From a virus, in IMG/VR virus record IMGVR_UViG_3300037391_000010, positions 64,001-128,000 of that record: a DNA stretch of 64,000 bases; one strand, given 5' to 3'. Below are positions 21,501 to 64,000 of this stretch, in pieces. Made by a program: the position numbers and the translations under genes. A model generated the notes under the pieces. That model was not told where the DNA came from and made no database searches. It was given only the letters and a program-made list of their open reading frames with translations. The stretch's first letter is position 1. Every line of letters begins with the position of its first letter.

Positions 21501-21717
21501 TAACCTCTACAATCAGGCGAGCCGTGTGAAGTACCTTATGAACAAGCTCACCGACAGCGAGATCAAGGACGCTATCAATAGCTCCTCGGCTCAGGGTGCG
21601 GTGTGGCACGAGGGCGAAGAGGGCGGCTACGTGTACGAAGTCTTCGTCCGTATCGACGACATCGACACCGAGAGCTTGATCGCGACATATAGCTTTATTT
21701 GCGGCACGAAGGAATAA
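18562..21717 (+). CDS. ~1050-aa multi-module protein with K-x-A linkers
   Basis: Start MPISIERL overlaps the stop of the previous gene. KIA, KNA, RTA, KGAS, KKAAA, KEAG and KTAG motifs lie between modules. Confidence 0.8.
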   Translation: MPISIERLQAAARRVGADIMHSDDDLSQKLETATPSAAEAGPSHDELVENSHDESGISVIDGEIRPPERQNVSAVRDAIEAQAEMEIGKSIGEKEEEMEARGDGPYGDKEVKDTTTTTIDAKPGKQIIINIAKEVDRGISVAPTQAKGIGGEKQHPRENTSSNGMFGGTSLSATPNFEKHSEEGTPSPDVVARVRGQYTSGMGRKSCMEHFKITEQQLDDILSGKYGKGKIATYHELKAAFTKNARLFNETELRLAGQEYLHMVRTAAIGVAQGQDEQGFHMLLNMNGREYVLRGADADSFRKEYAAIPKPEVAVNKLVEKYLWKMQPYQKQTIQHPPSETKQDSNSQALRRQRSEGLADADAYWGGKEKGQNDYKRYMTQHASTKIAAESYAEYQKLVQERSQIISQNRSRQMKGQPPAPVPPKPQPPMVPVAYAADGTYEGRLQDPADCPPGCKVKWEPAKGASMMTLAKIAGDYFGYDDWITGHTALMINNDSAGLTTLHNLTRSALKKKMTPKQLAGQFAKFFKKFGEQSKKFYAENAENARGERGKHEREQLEGVVKAPSGDKARDFVDSLTNMWYDAGGQSDWEQPSNEVNWEEIATAEMESERAENPDKYPQTNKEDDKFMEGVGMKMESLRTATAVLARVAAMSVGDKHQLRIAIDSLKMNPAMLGVMGGPSREEALEILAKHDLRWDETGGRVIKANDKKAAAGCDWQTEYGMGAGDARCGQPTTGNSPWCAEHIQEAKDNYPQHALPTKNGGEGAVKTPEEIEKEAGFNFFFPGQVLREVAPEMQHELVDYPNQTNTPMQYPDIVGDREEVPEEMALAAALDGALDTTIIAYVSTSPAAAAGIGRDGKSEVLEGAPLRKENDIRGLMFTDEFYGQQSGVPGAAFASQAKAAGFARPGSAFKYLKSLKLGKTAGADEAKQFSIFLQYVCGEIAATLVALFKVTYRPMLNQVPGKGEIQLAQVEQPQGLSSFNLYNQASRVKYLMNKLTDSEIKDAINSSSAQGAVWHEGEEGGYVYEVFVRIDDIDTESLIATYSFICGTKE

Positions 21718-34769: not shown

Positions 34770-34803
34770 CCTGACTTCCCTTTTCATTTGAAGGGGGAAG
34801 CCA

Positions 34804-46745: not shown

Positions 46746-48242
46746 GTGAAAATCGTCATCGCCGACAAGCTACCACAGGAACACTCTACCGAATTCAGGG
46801 GGCTCCCTGTTATAATTGAATGGCCGAAGGGAAGCACCCGTGTGGGTAAGAACCCTGACGGTACGACGTTCAAAACAGAGATGAAAGTCGATTATGGCTA
46901 CATCCCCGACACGACGGCGGCTGGGGACAAGGAAAAGCTCGACATCTACGTCGGGACCAATGAAGATGCGGAATATGCCTACATTGTTGAGCAATTGGAC
47001 GACAAGGGCGAATTCGACGAGTACAAAGTGATGCTGGGATTCGACACGCTGGAAGCTGCGGAAGAGGCGTACATTGGGCAGGCGGGTGAGGACCTGCTGG
47101 GCGACATCTCCGAGGTTGATTTCGAGTACCTGTTCGACACGGTGAAAGAGAAACAGAAGGAAGCCGCTGCTAAGAAAGAAGCCAAGTTCGCCGTTGGTGA
47201 GAAATACACAGTAATTGAAGCCTTTTTGAAGAACTACAAGCACGAGGTGGACTTCTACGATGAAGTCGCGCACCTCGTACAGGACAAGTTGGATCAGGCT
47301 CTTCAGGACGCGGGAATCAAGGCGGTGGTTAGCTCCCGTGCGAAAACCCCAGATCGGCTGAGGAAGAAGCTGTACAAGCGGAACCAAAAAAGAAACTACA
47401 AGACGTTCCGCGACATCGACGACGACATCATCGATTTAGCTGGCTGCCGCGTGGCTCTGTACATGCCCGCCGACCGCGATGCGGTTGGAAAGCTCATTGA
47501 AAAGTTATTCGTTCCCGTGCGACCCCCAAAGAGCTTCCCCGAAGCCAGCAAGCCCGAAGAAGGCGATACGCTGGGTTACACGGCGACTCACTATCTTGTG
47601 CGCCTGCGCCCCGAAACGCTTCGTAAGAAGGAGCTTCGGTACGCCGACACTCAGATCGAGATTCAGGTAGCATCCGTCCTGATGCACGCTTGGGCTGAAG
47701 TGACCCATGACTTGCTTTACAAGCCTGAAAAGGGTGAACTGACACCCGAAGAAAAAGCAGCCCTGAGCAATCTGAATAGGTTGGTGCAGGAGGGAGAACG
47801 GGAACTTGAAAAGCTTCAGTTCGCCATCGAAGGCCGCACGGATACAAGCCTTCGGTTTGAAATCGCAGCAGCTTTGGCGACGAGTCTCAAAGCCCGGTCG
47901 ATGGGAAAGACTGCCTCCCTGACCGTAGGCGACATTGAGAAGGCCGTTAGAGCTATTGTTGGAAGCAAGACATCACTGTGGTCGATTTACTTGAAAGCCA
48001 CGGAGACGCTCAGGAAAGCTCGTTGGGAAAGGCCCGACGAGGAGAAATACCGCAAGGCATGGGAATCCGCTGGATATGCGAAACCCGAGGAATCGCCCGC
48101 GAGTGAAACACATTACATTCGCGAGGCCATGGAGAAGCTCGCCCCGGGTAAGCCAGTTAGTACGTTGTGGGTTCTGCCGAATCGTAGTGAGATCATAGCT
48201 CTTGCTCAACAGTTGAAAGCCGAGGCAACAAAGGAAAAATAA
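46746..48242 (+). CDS. Fusion of inorganic-pyrophosphatase-like domain + RelA/SpoT-type nucleotidyltransferase (alarmone synthetase-like) + unknown C-terminal module
   Basis: IEWPKGSTR.G...M..DYGYI...D.EKLDIYVG...FDEYKVMLGF (PPase-like). RAKT...DLAGCRV...GYTATHY...EIQVASVLMHAWAE..HDL.YK (RelA/SpoT). Linkers KEAAAKKEAKFA and KTAS. Confidence 0.85.
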   Translation: MKIVIADKLPQEHSTEFRGLPVIIEWPKGSTRVGKNPDGTTFKTEMKVDYGYIPDTTAAGDKEKLDIYVGTNEDAEYAYIVEQLDDKGEFDEYKVMLGFDTLEAAEEAYIGQAGEDLLGDISEVDFEYLFDTVKEKQKEAAAKKEAKFAVGEKYTVIEAFLKNYKHEVDFYDEVAHLVQDKLDQALQDAGIKAVVSSRAKTPDRLRKKLYKRNQKRNYKTFRDIDDDIIDLAGCRVALYMPADRDAVGKLIEKLFVPVRPPKSFPEASKPEEGDTLGYTATHYLVRLRPETLRKKELRYADTQIEIQVASVLMHAWAEVTHDLLYKPEKGELTPEEKAALSNLNRLVQEGERELEKLQFAIEGRTDTSLRFEIAAALATSLKARSMGKTASLTVGDIEKAVRAIVGSKTSLWSIYLKATETLRKARWERPDEEKYRKAWESAGYAKPEESPASETHYIREAMEKLAPGKPVSTLWVLPNRSEIIALAQQLKAEATKEK

Positions 48243-48248
48243 GTCATC

Positions 48249-48791
48249 ATGGCAGTCGCACCCTTCACCCGCATTGTAGTCGATAAGAAGGAGGAGGCGA
48301 AGTTCCGCCGCCGAGCCCTGAATCATTACCCACTGGAATACATGGAAGCCCTGTGGGGCAAAGTACGTGGTGATATCCTCTACATTCATGCCTTTGTGAA
48401 GGTCGATCATAAGCCCGGAAAACGCACCCTTCGGTACGAGGATTACGAGATTGACGAGCATGAAGAGGATGCAGCCGAAATCGGGCTGACCTACCTTGGC
48501 ACCATCCACACTCACCCAAACGCCGAAGATGCTCAATTTAGCGAGGTTGACTGTGAACAATCGCAGGACTCTCAGGACGTAATGATGGGCATCTGTGCCA
48601 TCCAAACTACCTATCTTGATGAGGAAACCAAGACTCAAAAGCCCCTGAACCGCAAGGTCGTCCGCGTCGAATACTGGCCGACCGTAACCCCACTCATCGC
48701 CATTCGTCGCGACACACCACCCTCAAGGTCGGTCAAACGAGCCCTCAAAAGGGGCTATAAACTGGCGAAAAAGAAGAAGTCCCGTCGATAA
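48249..48791 (+). CDS. JAB/MPN+ metalloprotease
   Basis: E(YMEALWG)...LGTIHTHP....FSEVD matches the E-x(n)-HxH-x7-S-x2-D JAMM motif. Confidence 0.8.
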   Translation: MAVAPFTRIVVDKKEEAKFRRRALNHYPLEYMEALWGKVRGDILYIHAFVKVDHKPGKRTLRYEDYEIDEHEEDAAEIGLTYLGTIHTHPNAEDAQFSEVDCEQSQDSQDVMMGICAIQTTYLDEETKTQKPLNRKVVRVEYWPTVTPLIAIRRDTPPSRSVKRALKRGYKLAKKKKSRR

Positions 48792-48821
48792 ACTTCCGCT
48801 TTCTATGGTATGGGCGCTAGA

Positions 48822-51800
48822 ATGAATCCATTGCTTCAAATGAAGACCGCCGCGTTCTCCTCGGTACGGGAAATCAATATCTCGGAAGATCAGGGCTCCG
48901 CAGAAGGGTACACAGCGGACACCAGTGCGGAACAACTCCAGAATTGGCTCGACCGCTTCGGCTACACGAACGAGGAATTCGTTGCCGACCTGCGGAAGAA
49001 ATACGATAGCTTCGCCGTATTGAATAACATCAATGTGTACGAAGATTCCCGTGGCAAGGGCTACGGCGATTACCTGCTTCAGGAATTCCTGCGAGAAGCT
49101 GGGGATCATGGTGCGGGTATCTGCCTGCTGGTCGCCGACACTGCCGAGGAACAGGCCAAGGGTTTCAGCTTGGTGGAGTGGTACGAACGTAACGACTTCG
49201 AGCAGATTGCCTCGGTCTACGGCGGGGAACTGATGATATTGGGCATCATGAATCCGAAGATTGTGGCAAAGAAAGCAGCCGCCGACATCGGTCAGATGAA
49301 GAACATTGTTGCCGAGATGATGAGCGTACTCACCGCTGGGCTACCACAGCCCGAAGTCAAGATCATAAACCAGACCAATAGAACGTTGGGGCAATGCCGT
49401 TGGCTTTGGGGCAAGAAAGCCGATCAGACTTGGGGCGATGACAATACCACGTTGGAAATTCAGAAGAAAGTTCTGGGGCACGAGGAGACCCTCCGTCGCG
49501 TCATCGCCCACGAACTGTGTCACCATGAAGTTGCTTTGCTCGTTGCTAAACCAAAGCTTCTGGAGATCGGCTACGAAACCTACAAACGGTATCAGAACAT
49601 TTTCGGGCCTGATGGACACGGCAAGGAATGGAAGGAAGTCGCCAAGCGTTTCGATGCAAAATACGGTGCGGACTTTGTGACAGAGAAATCCGATAAGGAC
49701 ACCGTAGTGGACGAACAAGGCAAAGAAATCTTCATCCTGCTCAATAACTATGTCTACGGTCGGCACAAGCAGCGTTTGGGCTGGCAGTGGGCAGTGGGGC
49801 TTAGCCGTCAGGCTATGGCGTACCTCGATGGGATTGATTGGACTTCAGGCGAATTCAAACTGGTCAAGACGACTGATGCTGTATTCACCAAGGGGCGAGG
49901 CCGAATCAAGCAGTACACAGGATGGAATTTGCCGCGCACCCCTGAACAGGAACAGAAGCTTCAAGACCTCTGGGCGAATGCTCCGATGGCGAAGTTCGGT
50001 GCCGACGAAGACAAGACTGCCAAGTCAGGCCCGCACAAGAATGCGACATCCCAGATCAACCTGCCGCCCGAAGCCGCCGCTGGGATGATGGAAGCCGCGA
50101 AGCAAATTCCCGATGAGGAACTCGGCAAGGATGGTCGCGAGGATGACCCACACATCACAGTTAAGTACGGAGTAAAGCCCGATCCCGATTTGTTGAGTCA
50201 AGTTGTAGGTGAACAGCAACCATTTACGGTAACGCTGGGCAAGACGCACGTATTTTCCGTGAGCGAAAGTTCCGACGCTCAAGCTCCTATCGTGGTTCAA
50301 TGCCATGCTCCCGAACTTGAGGCTCTCCACAACAAGGTCGCGGAAGCGATTGGCACTCGCAAGGATGATTTCCCCTACGTGCCACATGTAACTCTCGCTT
50401 ATGTCAAGCCCGACGTTGCCGCCAAATATGAAGGAATGGACTGGGCTGAGGGCATCTCCTTCCAAGTAGACGCCATCACCCTGAGTACGAAGGGCGGCGG
50501 TCAGGTTCGAGTGCCATTTGGCAAGCCTCGTAAGTCCGCATCCCACAAAACCCCACCGATGAGCGACACGCAGTACCAGAACCCTGAGATGGGTGAGGAG
50601 ACGAACGCTTACGCAGACATTCCAGAGCGTGTGAAGGGTGTCGAAGACCTGCCTTCGCTCGAATCGCTTTCGCCTGACCTATTCAAGACGGGAGCGGGCA
50701 GCGTTCACGATCTCGATTTACAGGACGTGGTTGCTTGGGGCGGCAGCCTCAGTGAGGCACAGGGCGATTGGAACAAGATCAGGGCAGAGGCCGCTGAACG
50801 TGTGAAGGCTGAAGGCAAGGATTGGGAGAAAATGCCCGAGGCTGAACAGGAAGTGTGGCTCGACAAGATTGGCTGGGAGTGGCTCGGGGCGACATGGGAA
50901 GTCACCATGAACCGCCTCCAATCTCTGAAGTTCCCTCTCGTAGTCTACCGTGGGCTGGGCTCCGTCAGCCTCAAGGAGATCAACAAGGGGCAATACAAAG
51001 AGAAGGGCACGGGCATCTATTGGTCTTATGATGAGAACAACGCTTACGTGCATGAGGAACTCGCCGCTGGGCATTCGCACATCATAATGTTGCGAGGCGT
51101 CGTGAGTTCACCAAAGCAGATCGATTGGATTCGTACCGCTTATGTCAACCTCGTGGCATCGGATGAGAAGGAAATCAACATCTGGCCGGGTGAAGAGGTT
51201 CAGATCACGGGCTACAAGTACAAGGGTGAGAAGGCGTGGAAGAATCCACCGAAGAATCTCCGTCAAGTACGTGCCGCCGCCACGAACTTCAAGCCCATGC
51301 TGTTCGACAACTGGTGTGACGCGAACCCGATGTACCAGCCTGACGATTTCAACGAGGCCGAATACCGTTACGATGAGAATGTCGCCCACTTCAGCACTGT
51401 GGATTTCCCCATCACGATCTACCGTGCGGTTCAAGTTGAGCAAGGCACGCAGCCGAACTTGGAGAAGGCTGGCATCTATTGGACGTGGGTTGAGAACAGT
51501 GCTGATGCGTACTTTGGTTCGGGGTCGATATGGGATCAAGGCGGGCCGCATCCGAAGAACCCTCAAACCTTAATTCTAAAAGCCAAGGTGTTGCGTTCGA
51601 CCGATGTGGATTGGGACGCGACTCTTCTCGCCAACATGCTCAACGAAGACGAGAACGAGATCACTGTTGAGGCAGGTGCCCAGCTTCAATTGATTGGTAT
51701 CGATTACGGGCAAGGCTATAAGAAGCCCGCTCAGAAAAGGGTCATGGCATACGGCGACGAATCCAAGAACCTGCCTTTACGTGGACAGAAAGGTGTGGGC

Positions 51801-54800
51801 GGACAGGACTTTCCTCTGATGTTCGACCCGCCGTTGTTCTCGGATGAGAAGGAAGCCGCAGGCAGACCGAAGTTCTACCACGGCACGGCAGCGGAGAACC
51901 TCGACGACATCCTAAAGAACGGGCTCAAAGCCAGCAAGGATATGAGCAGCAACGAGTGGGGTCGGTCTGTGTACCTCGCCTGCGATGCATACACGGCAAA
52001 GAACTACGAGGGGCATCAAGGCAAGGGTCGCGGCAACTGGGTCATATTGGAGATCGACGGCAATAAGCTCCATGAAGACCTGCTTCGTCCCGACGATTAC
52101 GATTTCCGCGACATCTTCGAGAGCTTGCCCGAGGAAGAGAAGGCAAAATGCGAGGGCAACTGGGCGTGGTGCGATTGGCGAATAAGCCTTGAGCACAGTT
52201 GTCAAGTGGCGTACATGGGCGATGTCCCGCCTGACGCCATTAAGGTCGTTCCAACGCCGAAGTTCAGCGCAAAGATCAATCCCAAGTTAAAAGCATGGTT
52301 CAACGGTTCGAAGGTTGTGGACGACAAAGGACAGCCACGCATTGTGTACCACGGCAGCAAATCCACGTGGATCAGTTCCTTCGATCTGGGTATGGAAGGC
52401 ACAGGCACGGCAGGCAGCACAAAGTGGGGCGGCATTTGGTTCACATCGAACCAAGGAAACGCCAGTTGGTTCGCCGATCCGCCCGAGGAAAAGGTTGAAG
52501 CACGCACTGATGACGTGACGGTCTACGGTAATGACCCGTATTATGCCGCCATCACCGACATTAACGGCGAAGGCATTTTCGAAGTTGGCCCGCATCCTAC
52601 AGAAGAGGAAGCGGAGCGAGACGGCATTGCACAGGCGAAAATGTACAACGAGCATCTGGGTGAGGACACCAACGTCCAAGCCGTCTACCTGAAGATCGTC
52701 AACCCGTATGTCACCGATCAGATTCCGCGTGACAAGGAATTCAAAGCCGCTCGGGATGGCGGACACGACGGGATCATCGCCAAAGAGGTAACGGATGGTG
52801 TGGAGGTTAGCGATGTGTTTGTCGTGTTCAGTCCGAATCAGGTCAAGTCCGCTACCCGCAATGTCGGGAACTATGACCCGAACAACCAAAGCATTATAGC
52901 GGGTGGGTCAACCCAGTTGTTGCCCGACGAAGTGGAGCTAGTTGCAGACATCGCTCAAAGCGGCGGCGGGAAGGCATTCCCGAAGCTGGAGAAAGAGCCA
53001 TTGTTCCCCGAGGATAAAGAGAAAACTGCCAGTGCCACACCAGAAATCAAGGAAGAAGCAAACAGTCTCCGATTAGAAGTTGGGGGGCAGAAGATTGGCT
53101 ATATCGGTTATCGCGTGGATCAAGTCGGCAAGAAGAAGTTTGCCGAAATCTCCGGTCTCGAAGTGGACAAGGCATGGCGTAGACAGGGGTGGGGAACAAA
53201 GCTGTACGAAGCTCTTGCCGCAAAAGCGAAACGCGAAGGCATCTCGTTCCTGACCTCCAACCTCAGCGGTATGACCTCTTCTGACGCAGAGGGTGTGTGG
53301 TCTCACCTTATTGGTAAAGGGTACAACATTGAGGAGGTTGCATCCGAGGATTCGGAGACGGGCAAGCCGTATTTCAAGTGGAAAGTCGCCAAGCAGTACG
53401 GCCCCGTCTATCACGGCACCTATCACGAATGGTCTGACAAAATCCAGAATGACAAATACAAGATCGGAAAGTTTTTCAGTTCAGACCCGCTTGTGGCACA
53501 GGCATACGGCAGCTTCGTGCATGAATGTTATCTGACGATGAACAAACCATTCATCGTGGACGCGAAGGGAGAAAGTTACTCCTCAATCCCCACGCCCGAA
53601 GCGTTGAAGCGTTGGGTTGCCTCTGGAATGGATACGGTCGATACTGACAACATTGCTGATTACGCCTCCAAACATGGGTACGATGGCGTCATCATTAAAA
53701 ACGTTGTTGAGCTTCACCACCAAGTCGAGGCGGACGACTACATCGTGTTTAAGCCCAATCAGATTAAGGTGAAGGGCGTCATTGAGCCTGAGATCAGTCC
53801 TTACACTGCCAACAAATACCATAAGCAAGAGTTGCAGCGTCGTTTTGAAAAGAAATACCCCCAGACGGCAAGCTCGCACACGGCGGCGGGACTCCCGTCA
53901 TTCAATGCGTGGGTGAAGAAGAACGGCGGCATCGCCAAGATTCTCGACATGTACGACGTTGACACAGCGGAGACTTACGGTTCCGGGTTGGAAGAGCCCG
54001 AGAATCAAGCTGACGTTAAACGTTACGAGAAAGAACTACACAAGCGTGCCTTGGCGGACTTTCAAGAGCGATACGAGCATTTTATCGCGGAGTACCAAAG
54101 CTGGCAATTCCCGATGGATGTGTTCCGTTGCATCTCTTTGCCAAAGCCTGACAGCAACGCAGGACAGCAGCACTTGTTCCCCGATACTCCGCAGGCACAG
54201 TTCCAGCAAGGATTGCAGGCGATAAAGTACAACGGCGTCGGCATCTTCTGGTCGTGGGATGAAAACTCCGCAGAATGCCATTGGGGTTCTGGCGGGCCGA
54301 ACGTGACGCTGCACGGCATAATCAACAAAGACAACGTTGATTGGGAAGGCACGCTTTACGCCAACATGTTTCCCGCATTGGGCGACGACGAAAAAGAAGT
54401 CCGTCTGATAGAGGGTACACAATTTGAGCTTGAGGGAATCCAATACGACGAGAAGTCGGGATGGTCGCAGCCCCCAGTGAAGACGGTTACGGCAGCGAAG
54501 GCCAAGAAGCGTGTGTTCTACCATGCGACGAGTGCCGCGAACATCAATGGCATTGCACAGCACGGGTTGAAGCCTTCGGAGAAGACGAACTGGGGTGGTA
54601 TGCTGGGAGATAGCTCCCTTGGCAAGACGTTTTTTGCAAAAACACCCGCCTCGGCGATGTACTACGCCATGATTATCTTCCGCGACAAGCTGGAGGATAA
54701 CGGTCAAGCACATGTCCCGATCTGCCTTCGTGTGACCATACCTGAGAAGGTTCAGTTGGACACGGAGCGGGCCCAGAATGTGCAGAGGGGAGTCCATTTA

Positions 54801-57800
54801 CCAGAAAGTGAAGCCTATGCTCCCGATGAGGAATCGTGGGTCACGGAGGGGATTCCGCCTGCGAACATTCAGATGTTCTGGCAGGGTAAGTGGCAGCCAG
54901 TCAAATCGGGCGATTGGGATTCCATGTTCTATTATGAAGAGGGAGAGGGCGTTGGGTACGTGGACTGGGAAGGCTCCCCCGTTGGAGATTCCGTTCCTGA
55001 AGCTATGGCTGACGTTGAGAGCTTCACGATGCCGAAGAAAGCAGGCGTGATGGGTCAGGTATACCTCCTGCACTTCGATATCGATCCGAAGGAAGAGATT
55101 CCTAGCACCCGCGAGGACGCTAAGAAGCCGTTCCACGCTCGTCACTATATGGGCTGGGCCGAGAACGCACAGGAGCGCATCGACCAGCACTACAAGGCAA
55201 CCTCAGGCGTCAAGCTGATCGAAGCCATCCATGCCAAGGGTATTTCGTTCACCGTCGCCCGAATTTGGGATAACGTGGATCGGGACTTTGAGCGTAGGAT
55301 GAAGAATCAGGGCGGATTGAACCGTCACTGTCCTATTTGCAAGAAGCTGGGGCTCATCCCCGCGTCTCGCTATCGCGGCAAGGCATTGGAGAAGCAAGTG
55401 GCACCAGCAACACCTGAAGCAGGGCTAGATTTCGTGGAGATAGAGAAGAAGGCCGCAGCGGGTGATCTCGCCAATCTGCGGAACTACCTCACTCTGAGCC
55501 GCCGCGAGATGGGCGAGGAGTTAGCTCGGAATTTCAGCAGCTATTGGTCAGAGTTCGTAGAGAATGAGCATCCCGAGCTTGCCAATCTTATCGACGAAGA
55601 TGGCTACACTGACAATTTTGACACTGTTCCCGAGGATGTATTGAGCGACTTCCTCGACCAGTACGGCAGTCGGGCACTACAGGATGACCCCGCTATGGCT
55701 CCCACGTTCCTGACTGTGGACTATCGTCGCGATGTCAAGAACGCTTGGCTCGTGCATTTCACCGACTTCCCCGATGAGATTGCCAAGAGTGGTTTCAAGT
55801 ACGGCATGGATCGGGTGGAAACGCTCGCTCTAACGACCTACTTCAAGGAGGACGCGAAGAAGTTCGGTGGGTATAACTTTGCCCTCGACGCCCATCACCG
55901 CAACCTTGAATCTCTCGGGAGCAACTACGGCAAGCATTGCGTTCTGTTCCAAGCGAACGGTATTGAGACGTGGCATACAGGCGATGACTTTGAACAGATC
56001 ATTTTCTGGGGTAAGGACGCGAGGAACATCATTCCGATCTACGACAGCGGCGGGTATGGTACGTGGTCAGTCGGTGAGGACAAAGACGGTAACCCGCTGT
56101 TTGAGAGTGAAGACCTGTCGCAGGTTGTGGAGTGGGCAATTACGAACTCCGCGAAGTTGTTACCCAAAGCCAAGAAGCCGAAAGCTCAGCGTGCAGTCGC
56201 CAGTGAGATGACAACGTTATACCACCGTACTCGCCCGGGCCGTGAGGGACAGATTGACACGCAAGGATTGAGCCATATCGAAGGCGGCGGTGAACTTTGG
56301 TTTACTGATGATCCGTCTGCTTATTATGGGGACTCGCCAAACGCAATGTATAGCGTTGAGGTTCCTAAAGAAGAAGCCGAGGCCGCACACGTGGGTGGAC
56401 ACGATTACCGTTTCATGGGCCGTTCATTCGCCCCCGAACAAATCAAGAAGGTCGGTGCGGAGCCATGGGAAATGCGACAAGATGAATACGCGGGTCGCTG
56501 GAACGAGCAAGAGACAGAGGAGCAGAGCGGTGTGCGTCACCAGAAGAACCAAGATTGGGAACAGAATTCCCTAGCCGCCCTGTCGCTCGGTAAGATCACA
56601 CCAGAACAGGCGAAGGAACGCGGTGTGTACGAAGCGAAATCATTCATACCCCTGCCTCAGACCCCGTTGTATCACGTCACAACCGCCAAGAGTCAAGTCG
56701 AAGCGAATGGTCTCAAGACTCGTCGTGAACTCGGTCAAAATTACGGCAAGGGGTTGGGCGGCGGCACCAGCATGAGCATCAGCTTCACTGATGATATGAG
56801 CATCGCACAGGGCATTTACGATAACCTGCTGATCGCTCGTAAGGTTGCCGCAGGCGAGATGACCTTGGACGATCTGATTAGCACTGCCACTAAGGGCATG
56901 GGTGCGAACCGTCCGTGGATCGACGACATTCTCAAGTCGCTGGGCGGCTCCAACCCGAAGGACAAGATCAACGTGGAACTGGATGCCATACAACGTGGTG
57001 TGGCGTTCGAACACGGGCTGGGTCGTCCACCCGATGACGAAGCGATTCTGCCGCAGTACCGCAAGCCCGGGCCGTGGCGTCCTACTCCTTGGAGCCAACA
57101 TTGGAAGGGCGGCGATGGAGAAGAGAAGTACACGTACTGGGAACGCGACCTCACTCCTGAGGAAAAGCAGGAACGTGTGTTTGAGTTCTTCAAGAAGTGG
57201 AGCTTCTGGCGTGAGCAAGCGGGCGGGGGACTTGATCCGCTGTACTTCATGAGTGATCCAAAAGCTTTGGGTCAGACACCCGAGAGTGAGATCACCATCC
57301 TGACATTCAAGGCTGTGCCCGGAGCAATGGGCACTCGTGAATCGGCATTGGGTGAATGGCGTGTGTACACGGGTGCGGCTGTGCAGCTTACGGGTAACGC
57401 GGCGGCGGCAAAGATGGGGATGTTTAATCCCAACCGAGCTAACGTTCAGTACAATTCCGAGAAGGGTACAGGCGAGTGGGAAGGCTGGAACATCGATTTC
57501 AGCGCCGATCCAGTCAAGGAGCACATGCTGCCCGCATCGTTCGTTCGGAAGCTGAAAGGAATTGAGCAGAAGTTCATCAACGTCGCCGATGTAGTGGAGA
57601 CACAGAGCGAGCACTGGACAAAATCCGAACGTGTGGATGAGATTCACACACAGATGGAAACCGAGAAATGGTTCGAAGCCATTCTCGTAGACGAGTACGA
57701 AGATCAGCAAGGGAAATATTACTTGGAAGAGGGGCATCACCGCACCCGTGTAGCAAAGAAGATGGGCAAAACGACTATTCCAGCCGTGATTATGAAGCTG

Positions 57801-60800
57801 GAACCTCGTAAACCTCACTGGTCGTTATCGTCAGGTATCGTCAGAAAATCGTCAGATATCGCCAAGTTTGCGTTCCTCATCGAAGTTCCGAAGGAGTCAC
57901 GCGGCCATTTCTGGGATGAGCCGCCCGCCCACAATCTGGAGTTCTGGGCCTTCCGAAGCCGTCCTCCTGTCCTGATGAACGAGAAGGTCTACTTCACGTT
58001 CGACAAGATGCCCGTGGCGGAAACTACCTGCCTGAAGATTGAGAAACCCGGCGAGTCGCTGTGTGAACTGAGCGGCAAGTACGAGGATCACTGGAAGCTC
58101 TACTGGGAACCGAAGCAGTTCGTCAAATACGCTGGAGCCACAGTTACGTTGTACCATGGCACTTGCCCTGAAAATGCAACCGCACTCGTTGAAAAGGGAT
58201 GGCAGCCGAATCAAGTGAGCAGTGGGGCGAATCGTGGTCAGTCGAAGTATTTGTACCTGACAAATATGACGGACAACGCTCGCTGGTTTGCTCAAGAACA
58301 TGGGTGCGACACGCTAATCGAAGTTCGCAATATCCCTCTGAGCTACATCGCACTCGACCCTGAGGACGCTACTCAGGACACGGTGGAGGCTGAGCTTGAC
58401 TATAACGGCACGGGATTGCCCGGCACGGTTGTCCTCACACAGCCGTTGGGGGCGGAACATTTCCACGTGCTCCATGGTAAAGTCGGTAGCTTGAATGAGA
58501 AACGAAATGAAAAGTGGATTTACCACCCCGATTACGGTGCGTTCTCACAGAAGGGAAGCATAGGTCCTCATGCGACGTTGATAGCGAGAACCATGGGTGA
58601 GGGCATGGCCTCTGGGTGGAAGTACACTGAGGTACTACGAGGCTACGCAGTAATTGACGTGGATCAAAAAACCGTAACCTTGGCGACTCCCACGAAAGAG
58701 TTCATACCGAACGACGTAGTGGATTTGTTCAAGAAGAAATACCCCCAGTACGACCTATCGATTCCTGCGGAATCGAAAGCGGTTGGTGTGACCGCCGCCA
58801 TGCCGAAGAAGTGGTATCACGGCACGTCCCTGAAGAACGCTGAGAAAATCCTGAAGGACGGCTACCTCCAGCCAGATCAAGAGACGACCTACGACATTGA
58901 CATCCCGCGTGACGGGGCGGTATACATCGCCGACTTCGATATTGCGGAGCAGTACGCTATCGAACGCAGCGGTGTGGTGTTGGAAGTTGCCGCCCCGGAT
59001 ATCAGCAAGCTCCTGCCCGATGAAGATGATGTTTACGAACTGCTCAACGACCGTGGTGGTGAACTAAACGCCAAGGGTTCTGCCCAAGCCAAGCGTGTGA
59101 AAGCTCTGTGGCTCAAGCAATGGAATGATGAGAACGCTTCCTACAATGAGCCCGAGAAGTTCCCGATCTATAAGAACTTCGAGGAAGCATGGAAGGCATG
59201 GGGCGAAATCGAGTTCGAGGGCTCAGCCGAACTTGCCGAGCAGATGAAGTATTTGACCGACTACATTGTCAAGAATGATCCCAAGCTCGCTCGTGCGATC
59301 ATCGAACTGGCGGGTAAGGCTGCTCACATAGGGCCGCTCAAGGTTGTCCGTCAGGTCAAGACGGGTGCTCCGAAGTCCATCTGGTATCACGGCTCCAGCC
59401 TGAAGAACCTGCAAAGCATCATGAGTCAGGGATTGGTTCCCGAAGGTAAGGAAAAGGTCTGGGGGGACGATCCTGACGCTGGGCTATCTGCACCGAGTCG
59501 TCAATCTTACGGCGGAATCTACGTCACACAGAACCTCATGACGGCGACGGGAGCCCCCAATACCGAGGACAAGAAGGCTCGTGGCGGCGTACTGATTGTC
59601 GCCATGGAGCTTCAGCCGAACACGATGTACCTCGACGAGGACAACGTTACGGGAGTCTTAGGCGCTCCAATCAAGCACCTGAGTGACAACACCTTCCACG
59701 TTCTCTGTTATTATTTGGCGGCTACACAAGAAGGCGCTGCTGAGACTTGGCAACAAGAGATAGAAGGAATGCGTGCTGACTATATTCGCAAGTGCCTTAC
59801 GCAATGGGAGAGCAAATTTGCGGAGCGTAAGATACCGTTCCACCCCGAACTGAAAAAGGAACTTGAGAAGATTCTACCCAGTGTGTGGCTCGCGGGCGTA
59901 ACACGAGCGGCAGGCCATGTCAAGGACAACTACTCCTACATTCGGGCTTGGGATCAGGTCTTCTACGGCACTCCGAAGGAGAAGCAGCGTCCCGACGCGA
60001 ACACCGTGCTGCCCGACGCATCTGAGGGAGAGGCGGCGTTCCGCGAAGCGGCAGAGAAGGTCACCCGCACGCTGCGGCTCCTCGCTCGTCCCGCTGAAGA
60101 GTCTTCGAAGAATCAGATTTACAACATGAACACCTCTCGCGTCAACGAGCCGATTGGTTTCAGCGGGTCGAATCACATCCTCGCCCTCATAGAAGTTCGA
60201 GATCGCCAGCAGCCTGCTCAGATGATCCTGCACTGGGGCACCATTCCGCCAGACTTCTTCACCCAGTGGAACATAAAGTTTGGCAGCAAGTACGAAGTGG
60301 TGGACGCCCGCAAGGGTCAGCCCAAGGCTAGGGGTGTGGCAGCCTCAGCTAAAACCGCCGATGATTACGCCGCCGATTACGATCAGGAAGTCTTCTACCA
60401 CGCGACCACGTGGAAGATCGCTGACTTGATCGACAAAGAAGGATTGAAGTCAAGCGACAATCAACTGACTCAGGGTAAGAAGTACATCTGGTGCTCTATC
60501 GATATGGCTGCGGCGAAAACTTACGGTCGGTACTTTAGCCAAGACGAGGATAACGAACAGTTTGCTGTGGTGGAATTCATCTGGAATTACGATAAGAGCG
60601 AGCCTGACCCGGAGCACTTTGAAGAGGGCGACACGTACCGCCGCATCGAGTCCGACATTCCTCGGTCGGCAATCACCAAAATTTACTATTTCGCACACGA
60701 TCAGGTTGTCAAGACGGCTGCGGTAGAGGATAAAATCAAGGTAACCACGGCTCCAGACGGACGAATTACGGCCAAACACGTCGATGGAAGTGCTTCAGGC

Positions 60801-63800
60801 ACCGTGGAAGACCGTGAAGGACTGGCTAAGTGGTTTGATTGGAACACTTTACCACGTGGCGGGGCTGGAATTTACGACAAAGCCTTCGTTTTGGGCACTG
60901 TAACGGTCAAAGTCTCGTGCCGCCGTACAGGGCTCGGCAGGGCGCTTATAGGGGCTGTGCTCGACGCAGCGAAGGCTCAGGGTGCCCAAGTGTGCTTCCT
61001 GCTCGCCCATTCGCTCACAGGGCTCTCCGCGAAGGAATTGAGTGCTTTCTACAGCAGCCTTGGGTTCCAACCATACGTCATCGACCCGCCGCCGCGATGG
61101 TTCGATTCCTCGACCGCTGGCATTTTCATGAAGAAGCTGGCAGGCGTGGCAAAGCTCGCCGCCATGAACCGCATCAGCCAGCAGGACGCCGTGGATCGCA
61201 AGATGTTCGGCCCTGTCTACCATGGCACCACCGAGGAGAAACAGGAGAACATCGGGAACGAGGGCTTCAAGGTCTACATCGGTGACGCGGGATCGGGCGA
61301 CGTTGCTCACGGTTACGAAGGTAACCAACCCTATCATGACGGCATCCCTGCCCCCGTTCACCATCTGGGGTACGGCGTGTACTTCACGACCGCCAAGGCT
61401 ATCGCCAAGCAGTTCGCGGGCGGCACCACGCGAGGTATGAAGACTTACTACCTCGACGTGCCACGGCTGGAGACCATCAACTTCGGAGTACCGAAGACCA
61501 TGATGAAGTGGTGGGTGAGTCAGGGCTACGACGGGGCGCTCGCAAAGAAAGATCGCGTGGCAGCGACCAAGCAGATGACCGAGCACCTGAAGGCTCAGTT
61601 TGATGCCGTGTGGTTCAAGGGCAAGGGCATGTACAAGTTGCTCGATGGCGATCAGATTTGTGTGTTCGATTCGAGTCGCATCTATGAAGTCGATGCAGCT
61701 ATGTCGAAGCCGGGTGACATCGGCTCCAAGGTCATTCGTAAGGCCGATGGGATGAAGGGCGTCATCAAGAACATCCGTCCGATCCCGCCTGAAGTGGCAC
61801 AGCAGTATCACGGTGGGGCGGACAAGTTCTACGAGATCAAGTGGACGAAGGGCGGCACCGACCACAACGTCTACGCCCGCGATATCGATTTCGTTGGGGC
61901 GAAGGCTCAGGGCGCTACGGCGTCAATGAAGACCGCCGAAGGATTCAACGATGAGGGTTTCTGGGCAGGCGAAGGCAATGCCGCGTCTGGCGTTCTGCCA
62001 ATCTGCACCACCACGGGCCGCATCTGTCTCGCATGGCGATCACCCGATGTCCATATCGGCAATTGCTGGGGCACCATCGGTGGGGCGGTCAAGCCGGAGA
62101 TGAGCTTGTCAGAAAGTGCCAAGGCGGAACTGAAAGAAGAGACGGGGTTCGGCGGCGGTGTTACCATGATCCCCGCTTACGTGTTCAGCAGCGGGAGTTT
62201 CTCTTACCACAACTTCCTCGGAACCGTGGGCACGGAGTTCCGCTTCGCTCCGCAGAGCGAACATCACTGGGAGACCACTGGGCTCGAATGGTTCACATGG
62301 GATGAGATTCAGCAGATGGTAAAGGAAAACTCCAGCGATTTCCACCCGGGCCTCATCAGCTTGTTCAAGAGCGACGGCAAGAAGATCGAACAGCTTCTCG
62401 GCAAGCCAAAGACAGCAGCGGGCGACGATGGGGATATGCCGAACATGCTTCAAGTCTTCCCCGAACGTCCCGATGTGATGGAGACTTTCCGCCACATGCG
62501 CCCATTCGAACGGGATCGATTGATCGAGGAAGCTCAAATCGAAGAGATACATCCCGCCGATCTGAAGACAAATCAGGCGACTCTTTCACGGAAAGACCTC
62601 CAGTATTTCTTGGACAACCCCGAGGAGATCACCAAGCCGCACAGCAACGTCGGACTGAGCGACACGGAGCAGTTGTACCCGCTCGTGTGCCGCACCAGTG
62701 AAGGCGATTGGCTGTACGATGGTAATCATCGTGCGAATGCCGCCATGAAGCTCGGCATCATGCTCAAGTGCAAGGTTGTAGACCTACGGGATTACGAGGA
62801 GCCACAAGGAAAGGTTTCCAGAAAGCTCGCCGCACGAGGCGAGGTTGGCCCTGTCTATCACGGCACCGACAAGAAGTTCGACAAGTTCGAGCAGAAACCC
62901 GGCACCCGATACATTCTCTTCTCCGAGATTAAGGTACAGGCTGGTGGGTTCTTCTTCACCGATGACCCTGAGGAGGCGAAGGAGTTCGGCTCGAACGTCA
63001 TGACCTGCTACTTGAAGATGAAGAAGCCACTGATTCGGCAAGAAGACCAGTATAACTTGAGCAAAAAGCAAATCGCCGACCTGACTTACATCTGCGAGCC
63101 ATGCATGAGTGACGGCTATTCCGACTTGCAAGGCAATTCCGTCAAGACGATTGAACTTGGAGCCTTTGCCATCGATGTAGACCCAGAAGGCAACTGGCTC
63201 AACGAGATTGTGAAGCAGAACGGGCTCGATTGGAACATCTTGGATAATCAAGAAGCCGTTAATCGCATGAAAGAGCGCGGCTACGACAGCACCATGGTGG
63301 ATGAGTACAACGGCAAGTATAGCTATTGCGTGTTCTCGACCGACCAGATCAGGGTCAGTGGCGGCAAGACAGCCTCGGGTTGGAAGGACGAAGGCTTGCT
63401 CAACGAAAGCGACATGAAGAAGTGGAAACAATACTGGGACGGTCAGGGGCACAGTATCCAAGTTGACAAAGCCCACGGCGGGCTGTATCACTGCTGGATC
63501 AAGTTCGCAGCCGCCCCAGCCCGAGCATTGAAGCTCTACCATGTCACGACGGTGCCTATCGCCGAGGACATCAAGGCTCACGGCTTCAAGCCGGTCGATC
63601 AGGGTGTGTGGAAGAACTATTACGCCCCGCAGGGACGCGACGGCATCTACTTTTACGACGATCTGAAATACTCCGAGGCTTACGCCGCCTACACCGAGGG
63701 TCAACTTTACACGCGCAACATTCAGCCCGATAGACCTTGGAGTGAAAATAAGAAACACCTACCTCAGATGGCGATTATCGAAGTGCAGGTGCCCGAGGGT

Positions 63801-64000
63801 GTCGCGATTACCACCGACCAGAAAGAGGATGGGTTCTTTGTACCCACCGCTGATCTGGACAAGGTTAAGATCGTCAGCATGAACAAGTACGACTACGTTC
63901 CAGCCAACGGTAGAAAGCCGGGTGAGAAGTTCGGGGCAGCCTTCCCAACCTTCGAGCAGGTCATGGATGAATCTACCTTAAGCATGACTAATGAGTTCAT
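48822..64000 (+). CDS. Giant polyvalent effector protein/polyprotein (>5,050 aa, 3'-truncated): ~17 ADP-ribosyltransferase-fold domains, 3 GNAT, SprT-like protease, 2H phosphoesterase, GIY-YIG, 2 ParB/Srx, NUDIX and unknown modules
   Basis: Hand translation from ATG 48822 (MNPLLQMKTAAFSS...) finds no in-frame stop to the window end. Recognisable catalytic motifs occur throughout (see findings). Confidence 0.92.
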   Translation, partial: MNPLLQMKTAAFSSVREINISEDQGSAEGYTADTSAEQLQNWLDRFGYTNEEFVADLRKKYDSFAVLNNINVYEDSRGKGYGDYLLQEFLREAGDHGAGICLLVADTAEEQAKGFSLVEWYERNDFEQIASVYGGELMILGIMNPKIVAKKAAADIGQMKNIVAEMMSVLTAGLPQPEVKIINQTNRTLGQCRWLWGKKADQTWGDDNTTLEIQKKVLGHEETLRRVIAHELCHHEVALLVAKPKLLEIGYETYKRYQNIFGPDGHGKEWKEVAKRFDAKYGADFVTEKSDKDTVVDEQGKEIFILLNNYVYGRHKQRLGWQWAVGLSRQAMAYLDGIDWTSGEFKLVKTTDAVFTKGRGRIKQYTGWNLPRTPEQEQKLQDLWANAPMAKFGADEDKTAKSGPHKNATSQINLPPEAAAGMMEAAKQIPDEELGKDGREDDPHITVKYGVKPDPDLLSQVVGEQQPFTVTLGKTHVFSVSESSDAQAPIVVQCHAPELEALHNKVAEAIGTRKDDFPYVPHVTLAYVKPDVAAKYEGMDWAEGISFQVDAITLSTKGGGQVRVPFGKPRKSASHKTPPMSDTQYQNPEMGEETNAYADIPERVKGVEDLPSLESLSPDLFKTGAGSVHDLDLQDVVAWGGSLSEAQGDWNKIRAEAAERVKAEGKDWEKMPEAEQEVWLDKIGWEWLGATWEVTMNRLQSLKFPLVVYRGLGSVSLKEINKGQYKEKGTGIYWSYDENNAYVHEELAAGHSHIIMLRGVVSSPKQIDWIRTAYVNLVASDEKEINIWPGEEVQITGYKYKGEKAWKNPPKNLRQVRAAATNFKPMLFDNWCDANPMYQPDDFNEAEYRYDENVAHFSTVDFPITIYRAVQVEQGTQPNLEKAGIYWTWVENSADAYFGSGSIWDQGGPHPKNPQTLILKAKVLRSTDVDWDATLLANMLNEDENEITVEAGAQLQLIGIDYGQGYKKPAQKRVMAYGDESKNLPLRGQKGVGGQDFPLMFDPPLFSDEKEAAGRPKFYHGTAAENLDDILKNGLKASKDMSSNEWGRSVYLACDAYTAKNYEGHQGKGRGNWVILEIDGNKLHEDLLRPDDYDFRDIFESLPEEEKAKCEGNWAWCDWRISLEHSCQVAYMGDVPPDAIKVVPTPKFSAKINPKLKAWFNGSKVVDDKGQPRIVYHGSKSTWISSFDLGMEGTGTAGSTKWGGIWFTSNQGNASWFADPPEEKVEARTDDVTVYGNDPYYAAITDINGEGIFEVGPHPTEEEAERDGIAQAKMYNEHLGEDTNVQAVYLKIVNPYVTDQIPRDKEFKAARDGGHDGIIAKEVTDGVEVSDVFVVFSPNQVKSATRNVGNYDPNNQSIIAGGSTQLLPDEVELVADIAQSGGGKAFPKLEKEPLFPEDKEKTASATPEIKEEANSLRLEVGGQKIGYIGYRVDQVGKKKFAEISGLEVDKAWRRQGWGTKLYEALAAKAKREGISFLTSNLSGMTSSDAEGVWSHLIGKGYNIEEVASEDSETGKPYFKWKVAKQYGPVYHGTYHEWSDKIQNDKYKIGKFFSSDPLVAQAYGSFVHECYLTMNKPFIVDAKGESYSSIPTPEALKRWVASGMDTVDTDNIADYASKHGYDGVIIKNVVELHHQVEADDYIVFKPNQIKVKGVIEPEISPYTANKYHKQELQRRFEKKYPQTASSHTAAGLPSFNAWVKKNGGIAKILDMYDVDTAETYGSGLEEPENQADVKRYEKELHKRALADFQERYEHFIAEYQSWQFPMDVFRCISLPKPDSNAGQQHLFPDTPQAQFQQGLQAIKYNGVGIFWSWDENSAECHWGSGGPNVTLHGIINKDNVDWEGTLYANMFPALGDDEKEVRLIEGTQFELEGIQYDEKSGWSQPPVKTVTAAKAKKRVFYHATSAANINGIAQHGLKPSEKTNWGGMLGDSSLGKTFFAKTPASAMYYAMIIFRDKLEDNGQAHVPICLRVTIPEKVQLDTERAQNVQRGVHLPESEAYAPDEESWVTEGIPPANIQMFWQGKWQPVKSGDWDSMFYYEEGEGVGYVDWEGSPVGDSVPEAMADVESFTMPKKAGVMGQVYLLHFDIDPKEEIPSTREDAKKPFHARHYMGWAENAQERIDQHYKATSGVKLIEAIHAKGISFTVARIWDNVDRDFERRMKNQGGLNRHCPICKKLGLIPASRYRGKALEKQVAPATPEAGLDFVEIEKKAAAGDLANLRNYLTLSRREMGEELARNFSSYWSEFVENEHPELANLIDEDGYTDNFDTVPEDVLSDFLDQYGSRALQDDPAMAPTFLTVDYRRDVKNAWLVHFTDFPDEIAKSGFKYGMDRVETLALTTYFKEDAKKFGGYNFALDAHHRNLESLGSNYGKHCVLFQANGIETWHTGDDFEQIIFWGKDARNIIPIYDSGGYGTWSVGEDKDGNPLFESEDLSQVVEWAITNSAKLLPKAKKPKAQRAVASEMTTLYHRTRPGREGQIDTQGLSHIEGGGELWFTDDPSAYYGDSPNAMYSVEVPKEEAEAAHVGGHDYRFMGRSFAPEQIKKVGAEPWEMRQDEYAGRWNEQETEEQSGVRHQKNQDWEQNSLAALSLGKITPEQAKERGVYEAKSFIPLPQTPLYHVTTAKSQVEANGLKTRRELGQNYGKGLGGGTSMSISFTDDMSIAQGIYDNLLIARKVAAGEMTLDDLISTATKGMGANRPWIDDILKSLGGSNPKDKINVELDAIQRGVAFEHGLGRPPDDEAILPQYRKPGPWRPTPWSQHWKGGDGEEKYTYWERDLTPEEKQERVFEFFKKWSFWREQAGGGLDPLYFMSDPKALGQTPESEITILTFKAVPGAMGTRESALGEWRVYTGAAVQLTGNAAAAKMGMFNPNRANVQYNSEKGTGEWEGWNIDFSADPVKEHMLPASFVRKLKGIEQKFINVADVVETQSEHWTKSERVDEIHTQMETEKWFEAILVDEYEDQQGKYYLEEGHHRTRVAKKMGKTTIPAVIMKLEPRKPHWSLSSGIVRKSSDIAKFAFLIEVPKESRGHFWDEPPAHNLEFWAFRSRPPVLMNEKVYFTFDKMPVAETTCLKIEKPGESLCELSGKYEDHWKLYWEPKQFVKYAGATVTLYHGTCPENATALVEKGWQPNQVSSGANRGQSKYLYLTNMTDNARWFAQEHGCDTLIEVRNIPLSYIALDPEDATQDTVEAELDYNGTGLPGTVVLTQPLGAEHFHVLHGKVGSLNEKRNEKWIYHPDYGAFSQKGSIGPHATLIARTMGEGMASGWKYTEVLRGYAVIDVDQKTVTLATPTKEFIPNDVVDLFKKKYPQYDLSIPAESKAVGVTAAMPKKWYHGTSLKNAEKILKDGYLQPDQETTYDIDIPRDGAVYIADFDIAEQYAIERSGVVLEVAAPDISKLLPDEDDVYELLNDRGGELNAKGSAQAKRVKALWLKQWNDENASYNEPEKFPIYKNFEEAWKAWGEIEFEGSAELAEQMKYLTDYIVKNDPKLARAIIELAGKAAHIGPLKVVRQVKTGAPKSIWYHGSSLKNLQSIMSQGLVPEGKEKVWGDDPDAGLSAPSRQSYGGIYVTQNLMTATGAPNTEDKKARGGVLIVAMELQPNTMYLDEDNVTGVLGAPIKHLSDNTFHVLCYYLAATQEGAAETWQQEIEGMRADYIRKCLTQWESKFAERKIPFHPELKKELEKILPSVWLAGVTRAAGHVKDNYSYIRAWDQVFYGTPKEKQRPDANTVLPDASEGEAAFREAAEKVTRTLRLLARPAEESSKNQIYNMNTSRVNEPIGFSGSNHILALIEVRDRQQPAQMILHWGTIPPDFFTQWNIKFGSKYEVVDARKGQPKARGVAASAKTADDYAADYDQEVFYHATTWKIADLIDKEGLKSSDNQLTQGKKYIWCSIDMAAAKTYGRYFSQDEDNEQFAVVEFIWNYDKSEPDPEHFEEGDTYRRIESDIPRSAITKIYYFAHDQVVKTAAVEDKIKVTTAPDGRITAKHVDGSASGTVEDREGLAKWFDWNTLPRGGAGIYDKAFVLGTVTVKVSCRRTGLGRALIGAVLDAAKAQGAQVCFLLAHSLTGLSAKELSAFYSSLGFQPYVIDPPPRWFDSSTAGIFMKKLAGVAKLAAMNRISQQDAVDRKMFGPVYHGTTEEKQENIGNEGFKVYIGDAGSGDVAHGYEGNQPYHDGIPAPVHHLGYGVYFTTAKAIAKQFAGGTTRGMKTYYLDVPRLETINFGVPKTMMKWWVSQGYDGALAKKDRVAATKQMTEHLKAQFDAVWFKGKGMYKLLDGDQICVFDSSRIYEVDAAMSKPGDIGSKVIRKADGMKGVIKNIRPIPPEVAQQYHGGADKFYEIKWTKGGTDHNVYARDIDFVGAKAQGATASMKTAEGFNDEGFWAGEGNAASGVLPICTTTGRICLAWRSPDVHIGNCWGTIGGAVKPEMSLSESAKAELKEETGFGGGVTMIPAYVFSSGSFSYHNFLGTVGTEFRFAPQSEHHWETTGLEWFTWDEIQQMVKENSSDFHPGLISLFKSDGKKIEQLLGKPKTAAGDDGDMPNMLQVFPERPDVMETFRHMRPFERDRLIEEAQIEEIHPADLKTNQATLSRKDLQYFLDNPEEITKPHSNVGLSDTEQLYPLVCRTSEGDWLYDGNHRANAAMKLGIMLKCKVVDLRDYEEPQGKVSRKLAARGEVGPVYHGTDKKFDKFEQKPGTRYILFSEIKVQAGGFFFTDDPEEAKEFGSNVMTCYLKMKKPLIRQEDQYNLSKKQIADLTYICEPCMSDGYSDLQGNSVKTIELGAFAIDVDPEGNWLNEIVKQNGLDWNILDNQEAVNRMKERGYDSTMVDEYNGKYSYCVFSTDQIRVSGGKTASGWKDEGLLNESDMKKWKQYWDGQGHSIQVDKAHGGLYHCWIKFAAAPARALKLYHVTTVPIAEDIKAHGFKPVDQGVWKNYYAPQGRDGIYFYDDLKYSEAYAAYTEGQLYTRNIQPDRPWSENKKHLPQMAIIEVQVPEGVAITTDQKEDGFFVPTADLDKVKIVSMNKYDYVPANGRKPGEKFGAAFPTFEQVMDESTLSMTNEF

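Follow-up and report, generated by a model that had tools for sequence, protein, structure and literature searches.

A giant gene for a polyvalent protein

We analysed a window of 64,000 nucleotides (bases 64001-128000) of the 155,417-bp IMG/VR virus record IMGVR_UViG_3300037391_000010, the genome of an uncultured jumbo phage, estimated to be 48% complete, which also carries terminase, capsid and sheath genes. The window ends inside a giant open reading frame (ORF) that encodes a chain of many modules, and a short peptide motif, Lys-x-Ala followed by a small residue, recurs at the joints between them (Table 1). Amino acid (aa) positions in the giant protein are counted from window position 48810. 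Database homologues and the conserved N-terminus suggest, however, that translation begins at the ATG at 48822, which gives a protein of 5,480 aa.

Pfam identifies a GNAT-like domain, an SprT-like zincin (aa 172-283) whose His-Glu-x-x-His is intact, a 2H/LigT phosphoesterase (aa 419-563), two further GNATs, a NUDIX and a ParB-N domain in the giant protein, together with PARP-like and several ART-PolyVal ADP-ribosyltransferases (ARTs). Two ART-PolyVal matches (PF18760; E 1e-33 and 3e-20) exceed the curated cut-off of that family, and 15 matches to the pattern Tyr-His/Arg-x-Thr/Ser/Met mark the starts of ART-type modules. With its signature domains and its multi-domain architecture, the giant ORF fits the definition of a polyvalent protein given by Iyer et al. 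2017 (PMC5512222). Ten unannotated modules were also run through Pfam, and only two of them could be named, as a GNAT and as a weak PARP match. Three paralogous modules of about 190 aa (50697-51269, 51282-51848 and 53889-54485) have the signature Gly-Ile-Tyr/Phe-Trp-Ser/Thr-Trp/Tyr-x-Glu-Asn in common, belong to no Pfam family and may constitute a new domain family within the array. The genome whose giant protein contains about 15 ART modules that consume nicotinamide adenine dinucleotide (NAD) also encodes an enzyme of NAD salvage, a nicotinamide phosphoribosyltransferase (phrog_448, E 1e-140; record positions 8999-10438, outside the window).

The protein begins with a conserved leader of 11 residues. 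Five of ten related giants from metagenomes have the same leader, and the first module behind it differs among them. We consider the leader a candidate capsid-targeting peptide combined with a first cut site; a short N-terminal leader that ends in the motif is reminiscent of the capsid-targeting sequences of T4.

A four-residue motif is enriched in the giant protein and its relatives

A preliminary description of this stretch had listed K-x-[AGS] tripeptides at almost every domain junction. A regular-expression check found the listed strings in the giant protein and in the order given, and about 25 of the 31 lie within 12 aa of a homology breakpoint. The tripeptide consensus itself, however, occurs no more often than composition predicts (94 observed versus 92 in shuffled sequences). 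What is overrepresented is a four-residue form, K-[TFLVKASMEY]-[AG]-[AGS], subsequently referred to as the strict motif. It is found 27 times versus 8.8 ± 2.9 in composition-keeping shuffles (z 6.4), an approximately threefold excess, and K-x-A-A alone is found 12 times versus 3.0 (z 5.3). A logo of 97 junction windows displays Lys, a free position with a 6.5-fold excess of Thr, Ala over Gly, and then Ala, Ser or Gly, while the flanks carry no signal.

The strict motif is enriched in nine of the ten related metagenomic giants (z 2.8 to 6.5). Ten unrelated polyvalent proteins containing comparable types of domains showed no enrichment (z -1.4 to 1.3), so the motif is a feature of this lineage and not a general property of polyvalent proteins. 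A glycosyltransferase operon of the same virus, proposed earlier as a background control, contains four motifs in the 2,678 aa of its nine ORFs, as opposed to 30 in the giant protein, and is therefore at or below background. The codons used at the motif are synonymously diverse and have no DNA word in common. Selection thus acts on the peptide, and a recombination signal at the DNA level was rejected on account of the codon diversity.

The motif marks the borders of exchanged modules

The related giants are mosaics in which blocks of 50-90% identity appear in a different order from one protein to the next. In the ten related mosaics, a strict motif is found no more than 10 aa from 87 out of 256 clustered homology breakpoints, compared with 28.4 ± 5.0 at random positions, and the breakpoint often coincides with the motif itself. 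Four control motifs of similar composition had no excess at the same 256 breakpoints; the control pattern beginning with Glu had no boundary enrichment. In the giant protein alone, a breakpoint is located no more than 10 aa from 15 of the 27 strict sites, although stretches this close to a breakpoint make up only 17.6% of the chain (p ~1e-5). We also scanned all 6,587 patterns of the form X.XX for breakpoint enrichment, and K.AA (p 7e-12), K.AK, K.AS and K.GA were among the top seven. The enrichment at module boundaries relative to the rest of the chain, which the preliminary description had put forward for checking, is thus borne out.

Homologues that exist as separate proteins delimit the same joints. 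We searched residues 3971-4860, a segment of 890 aa with five modules, against 1.8 billion representatives and obtained 149 representative homologues. Their alignment ends, and the natural termini of the stand-alone ones, cluster at the junctions (segment positions 139-148, 404-407 and 564-567). No junction is straddled by a Pfam domain, and some domains exactly fill their segment. An AlphaFold model of the five-module segment contains one confident module, with a predicted local distance difference test score (pLDDT) of 90-98, flanked by motifs at pLDDT <50; only this module, which has a deep alignment, was modelled well, and the contexts of the other four junctions are uninformative. The confident module is of ART-PolyVal type and begins near segment residue 150, just past the double junction at aa 4109 and 4115.

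The motif could have been a part of the ART fold, as so many ART modules follow it. This explanation was discarded: none of six ART starts in unrelated polyvalent proteins has the motif, versus 51% in this family, and the motif also precedes GNAT, NUDIX, 2H and ParB modules. Judged from the mosaics, the motif marks the joints at which modules are exchanged between related giants.

The head protease and the major capsid protein carry the same motif

The same virus encodes a head maturation protease and a major capsid protein (Table 1). Two motifs occur in the protease, at residues 51 and 290. A portal gene was not found on this contig. Its AlphaFold model, based on an alignment of 34 relatives, has a confident core from residue 67 to 283 and disordered tails, which places both motifs just outside the fold. 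In a VIA structure comparison the core matches T4 gp21 with Z 8.4 (130 residues aligned, root mean square deviation 3.5) and herpesvirus proteases with Z 8.3-5.9. Structures of gp21 and of herpesvirus proteases occupy the first 23 rows without exception, and unrelated folds reach Z ≤5.6. A Foldseek search of the model against the PDB gave no match at E ≤ 0.001, with T4 gp21 as the first, weak hit (E 8e-3), and a sequence search of the PDB returned chance matches only. According to the model, the protease has the assemblin/T4-gp21 fold.

The C-terminal linker of the 34 proteases varies in both length and sequence, save for an invariant Ala (Ala292), a Ser directly after it (Ser293; at least 90%) and a Lys two residues before the Ala (29 of 34). 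Across 80 relatives the motif is nearly constant, and the only variant is a shift of the Lys by two residues. A subgroup of proteases (for example L031, L029, L038 and L051) has Lys-Phe-Ala-Met-Thr-Ala-Ser in place of Phe-Ala-Lys-Ala-Ala-Ser at the C-terminal position and retains the Ala-Ser. At the N-terminus of the protease, the alignment contains a near-invariant Phe-x-Lys-x-Ala-x-Ala in the 10 residues that follow the conserved start (L003:8996 onward), which could be another site or a targeting peptide.

The major capsid protein was the place where the preliminary description suggested looking for the same motif. It does contain two, at residues 19-22 and 26-29 and thus within its first 30 residues; they are conserved in relatives and there are none elsewhere in the protein. 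A motif placed in both disordered tails of the protease, at the N-terminus of the capsid protein and at module borders is the classical signature of a prohead-protease recognition site.

Cultured relatives

The closest isolate is Tunturiibacter phage Tunturi 5, whose capsid protein is 71% identical and whose host, Tunturiibacter psychrotolerans, is cultivable; Bacillus phage G is more distant (35%). In Tunturi 5, the capsid protein gp334 and the protease gp331 have the motif at the same places as in the virus studied here. Its 'DNA ejection protein' gp328 contains 16 motifs and gp332 contains 10, whereas a 1,381-aa tail fibre has zero. In the polyvalent protein gp321, which also includes an SprT-like module, motifs stand before the 2H domain, on both sides of ART-PolyVal, after GNAT and before the last ART, so that the domains are separated one by one.

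Phage G carries the motif at equivalent positions in the two tails of its protease, gp19, and near both ends of its portal protein, gp14. We found no ART-PolyVal protein in phage G and no motif in its capsid protein; phage G thus lends weight to the proposal only as regards the protease and the portal.

Other motif-rich proteins and the gene neighbourhood

Considering all ORFs of the record, seven proteins are enriched in the strict motif (Poisson p < 0.01). They contain 92 of the 147 strict motifs in 25% of the residues. Besides the giant protein, the large motif-rich proteins listed in Table 1 stand out. The largest of these (2,002 aa) is preceded by a 77-aa ORF with a strict motif at its residues 4-7.

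Upstream of the giant gene lies a fusion of an InPase and a RelA/SpoT domain, both of them typical of polyvalent proteins. Between this gene and the giant gene is a Prok-JAB gene, and nothing found here ties its product to the processing or marks it as the protease. The region between the motif-rich proteins and the giant gene includes a terminase large subunit (window 23969-26101; weak PHROG matches) and a sigma-factor-like gene (27019-28074). A 707-aa protein (window 31232-33355) combines an ice-binding-like beta-solenoid domain with a K1-capsule-lyase C-terminal domain and is probably a tail spike or fibre.

Table 1. Features of the giant gene and of other motif-bearing or neighbouring genes. 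Positions refer to the window unless the record is named; residues are those of the giant protein for the leader and the junctions; the last column gives the distance in aa from the junction to the nearest homology breakpoint.
Feature	Position	Strand	Residue	Description	Distance
Giant polyvalent-protein ORF	48810..64000, continuing to 65264 past the window end	+		5,484 aa; about 33 modules, median 145 aa	
N-terminal leader	48822..48854	+		Met-Asn-Pro-Leu-Leu-Gln...; ends in first strict motif, aa 12-15	
Junction	49269..49280	+	154	strict; GNAT-like / SprT-like zincin	11
Double junction	49992..50024	+	395, 402	one strict, one variant; SprT-like / 2H/LigT	1, 4
Junction	50532..50543	+	575	strict; end of 2H module	3
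Junction	50685..50696	+	626	strict; follows 51-aa spacer module	none nearby
Junction	51270..51281	+	821	Arg-for-Lys variant; between two paralogous modules of unknown fold	2
Junction	51849..51860	+	1014	strict; Tyr-His strand of PARP-like ART module 9 aa on	
Junction	52260..52271	+	1151	Ser at third position; ART-PolyVal module next	0
Junction	53022..53033	+	1405	strict; ART-PolyVal / GNAT	
Junction	53382..53393	+	1525	Lys at fourth position; ART strand 9 aa on	2
Junction	53877..53888	+	1690	His-for-Lys variant	3
Junction	54486..54497	+	1893	Val-type variant; ART strand 11 aa on	10
Junction	55035..55046	+	2076	strict	0
Junction	55446..55457	+	2213	strict	6
Junction	56196..56207	+	2463	loose Ala-Val-Ala-Ser; short ART-like module 8 aa on	1
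Junction	56448..56459	+	2547	strict, Gly at third position	2
Junction	57411..57422	+	2868	loose variant; ParB-N-like module next	4
Junction	57846..57857	+	3013	loose variant; follows ParB-N-like module	8
Junction	58125..58136	+	3106	strict; ART strand 9 aa on	2
Junction	58479..58490	+	3224	strict	0
Junction	58788..58799	+	3327	Val-type variant; ART strand 9 aa on	7
Junction	59358..59369	+	3517	strict; ART strand 9 aa on	1
Junction	60351..60362	+	3848	Asp at fourth position; ART module next	3
Junction	60711..60722	+	3968	strict; ART / GNAT	1
Double junction	61134..61163	+	4109, 4115	both strict; linker pLDDT <50 at segment residues 141-144	
Junction	61929..61940	+	4374	Glu at fourth position; ART-type / NUDIX	0
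Junction	62409..62420	+	4534	strict; follows NUDIX	1
Junction	62823..62834	+	4672	strict; ART-PolyVal 11 aa on, filling the segment (Pfam 4677-4848)	8
Junction	63366..63377	+	4853	strict	1
Junction	63501..63512	+	4898	strict; follows 45-aa spacer module; ART strand 12 aa on	
Junction	63927..63938	+	5040	strict	
Two junctions	past the window end	+	5184, 5354	Val-type	
Head maturation protease	record 27942-28898			phrog_18299, E 2e-14	
Major capsid protein	record 34216-35175			phrog_2522, E 4e-42	
2,002-aa protein	record 46638-52646			17 strict motifs; no Pfam family	
643-aa protein	10174..12105	+		motif-rich; 8 strict motifs vs 1.4 expected	
1,971-aa protein	12657..18572	+		motif-rich; 13 strict motifs vs 4.3 expected; no Pfam family	
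1,056-aa protein	18547..21717	+		motif-rich; 9 strict motifs vs 2.3 expected; no Pfam family	
InPase + RelA/SpoT fusion, effector-like	46746..48242	+		498 aa; strict motifs at its aa 138 and 388, between and after the two Pfam domains	
Prok-JAB protein	48249..48791	+		180 aa; directly upstream of giant gene; no motif	

Comparison with known systems

Polyvalent proteins were defined by Iyer, Burroughs, Anand, de Souza and Aravind 2017 (PMC5512222), who predicted that they are delivered together with the DNA and processed, and attributed the processing to fused zincin or C-terminal assemblin-like peptidases. The giant protein resembles them as a huge phage-encoded chain of ART-PolyVal, GNAT, NUDIX, 2H, ParB-like and zincin domains. 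It differs in its size, about 33 modules compared with the 2-15 domains reported there, and in having a four-residue joint that recurs in the capsid protein and in a head protease encoded by a gene of its own. The novelty claimed for a processed effector array in the preliminary description thus has to be narrowed, because processing was predicted before; a linker motif was not described in that work.

The proteases of SPN3US (gp245), phiKZ (gp175) and T4 (gp21) act on capsid, portal, scaffold and ejection proteins, which they cut at tripeptides whose middle residue is free (PMC10052503). These systems share with ours the fold class of the protease and a short motif that is present in the capsid protein, in the protease itself and in internal or ejection proteins. 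Their sites, however, end in Glu (L/I-x-E or A-x-E; PMC10052503), unlike the Lys-x-Ala found here. Closer parallels are found in the herpesvirus assemblins, which cut their R and M sites after Ala and before Ser or Thr, the R site being directly behind the catalytic domain (PMC4498786). The fold is homologous, the residue three positions back is specified in both cases, and the R site corresponds to the invariant Ala-Ser after the protease core. Assemblins differ in preferring Val-, Leu- or Tyr-type residues upstream, whereas Lys predominates here and the Val class is a minority, and they cut only themselves and the scaffold.

A functional analogy exists with MARTX and other multi-effector toxins, in which swappable effector modules are split by short protease sites, so that many enzymes arise from one chain. 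In MARTX toxins the protease is a cysteine protease domain that acts in cis, becomes active within eukaryotic cells and cleaves after Leu, whereas the likely enzyme here would be a trans-acting capsid protease and delivery would be by phage ejection.

Our literature searches returned no description of a Lys-x-Ala joint motif or of effector arrays with protease sites at their joints. The concept of polyvalent proteins and of their probable processing is already known, as are the prohead-protease codes of T4-like and phiKZ-like phages. What appears to be new is a Lys-x-Ala code, employed both at some 30 joints inside one array of enzymes and in several further very large proteins of the same phage, along with the evidence of module exchange exactly at the joints.

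A proposed role in head maturation

Taken together, the distribution of the motif suggests, with fair though not high probability, that it represents head-protease sites which join the roughly 33 effector modules and are cut between Lys-x-Ala and the following small residue. The giant gene would then produce an effector polyprotein whose joints are recognised by the phage's own head maturation protease of the assemblin/T4-gp21 fold. The putative site reads Lys (less often Val), any residue with a preference for Thr, and Ala (less often Gly), followed after the cut by Ala, Ser or Gly. We place the cut after the Ala because of the analogy with herpesvirus assemblin sites, which have the same Ala-Ser arrangement after the protease core. 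The chain would be brought into the prohead, possibly by means of its N-terminal leader, and be cut there. The capsid N-terminus, the tails of the protease and several further large proteins of the head that are rich in the motif would be cut along with it, and the products would accompany the DNA into the next host as individual enzymes. The scissile bond, the acting enzyme, packaging and ejection are all steps that we infer. That tethering keeps the toxins inactive in the producing cell, as the preliminary description had considered, is speculation. Its interpretation as a whole is partly supported, with all the sequence-level tests that it had proposed in its favour.

A broader version of this proposal is more tentative, and we would put it a little below an even chance. 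Jumbo phages of the phage-G/Tunturi-5 lineage may use a single Lys-x-Ala capsid-protease code for loading and dicing a cargo that exceeds 12,000 residues per genome and is encoded in seven motif-enriched proteins. This cargo would include an arsenal of 33 modules, with cassettes exchanged at the cut sites and enzymes tethered in an inactive state until they reach the capsid or the next host.

Several observations weigh against cleavage by the head protease. The motif is short, and loose variants, in which Val, His or Arg replaces Lys, or Ser or Met replaces Ala, make up a quarter of the proposed junctions. Within modules there are about seven strict matches, those at aa 284, 1205 and 2351 among them. 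The related giant P0010 has no enrichment although the same protease family is encoded on its contig; this protein (2,975 aa, contig IMGVR_UViG_3300033405_000002) has fewer and larger modules. Two other polyvalent proteins of Tunturi 5 have well-placed motifs, 9-10 aa ahead of ART starts, without being enriched overall, and the absence of the motif from the phage G capsid protein points in the same direction. The giant gene is about 80 kb away from the head-gene cluster, next to effector genes that do not look structural. Finally, known prohead proteases mostly trim N-terminal propeptides, whereas here some 30 internal sites in a 600-kDa chain would have to be cut.

One alternative is that the motif is never cut. 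It could be a linker or a docking element, either for binding of the protease, scaffold or portal or for the spacing of modules, and the chain would act as one tethered multi-enzyme protein. The N4 virion RNA polymerase and some plasmid-encoded polyvalent proteins are indeed transferred uncut (PMC5512222), and the motif is found in flexible regions. On the other hand, this explanation does not account for the invariant Ala-Ser directly behind the protease core, at the position of the assemblin release site, nor for the occurrence of the motif at almost all joints of unrelated modules and its retention through module swaps. The motif is also unlike ordinary linkers made of Gly, Ser and Pro. We consider an uncut motif unlikely, although it deserves to be kept in mind.

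It seems improbable that the motif is the cleavage site of a different protease, such as the SprT-like zincin within the chain, the neighbouring JAB protein or a host protease, which would cut before packaging or after injection. Zincin-mediated processing has been proposed for polyvalent proteins (PMC5512222), and an SprT-like zincin is present both in the giant protein, where it keeps its metal-binding motif and might act in place of the head protease or in addition to it, and in gp321 of Tunturi 5, while the Prok-JAB gene directly precedes the giant gene. However, the motif also occurs at the capsid protein N-terminus and in the tails of the head proteases, that of phage G included, and in large proteins that have no zincin domain. 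The related giants P0008, P0009 and P0011 are motif-enriched, yet none of them has a match of at least 45% identity to the zincin module. No JAB or SprT enzyme is known to recognise a sequence of this kind.

Chance, composition bias or a DNA-level recombination signal accompanying module shuffling could be considered in view of the Lys-, Ala- and Gly-rich giant protein and the unremarkable count of the generic tripeptide, but this explanation is very improbable and largely refuted by the z of 5-6 for the four-residue form in composition-keeping shuffles, the flat control motifs at breakpoints, the diverse motif codons and the unrelated polyvalent proteins that lack the motif.

Should cleavage by the head protease prove to be true, Lys-x-Ala would add a third code to those by which capsid proteases in the assemblin/gp21 superfamily cleave, closer to the herpesvirus code than to that of T4, and a phage would deliver dozens of host-modifying enzymes from a single gene. 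The evolution of polyvalent proteins would find an explanation at the sequence level, through the swapping of cassettes at protease sites. In a large clade of soil jumbo phages, represented here by at least 80 related contigs, sequence would suffice to predict cargo proteins and their mature ends; the clade has two cultivable members with the same motif in their protease, namely Tunturiibacter phage Tunturi 5 and Bacillus phage G.

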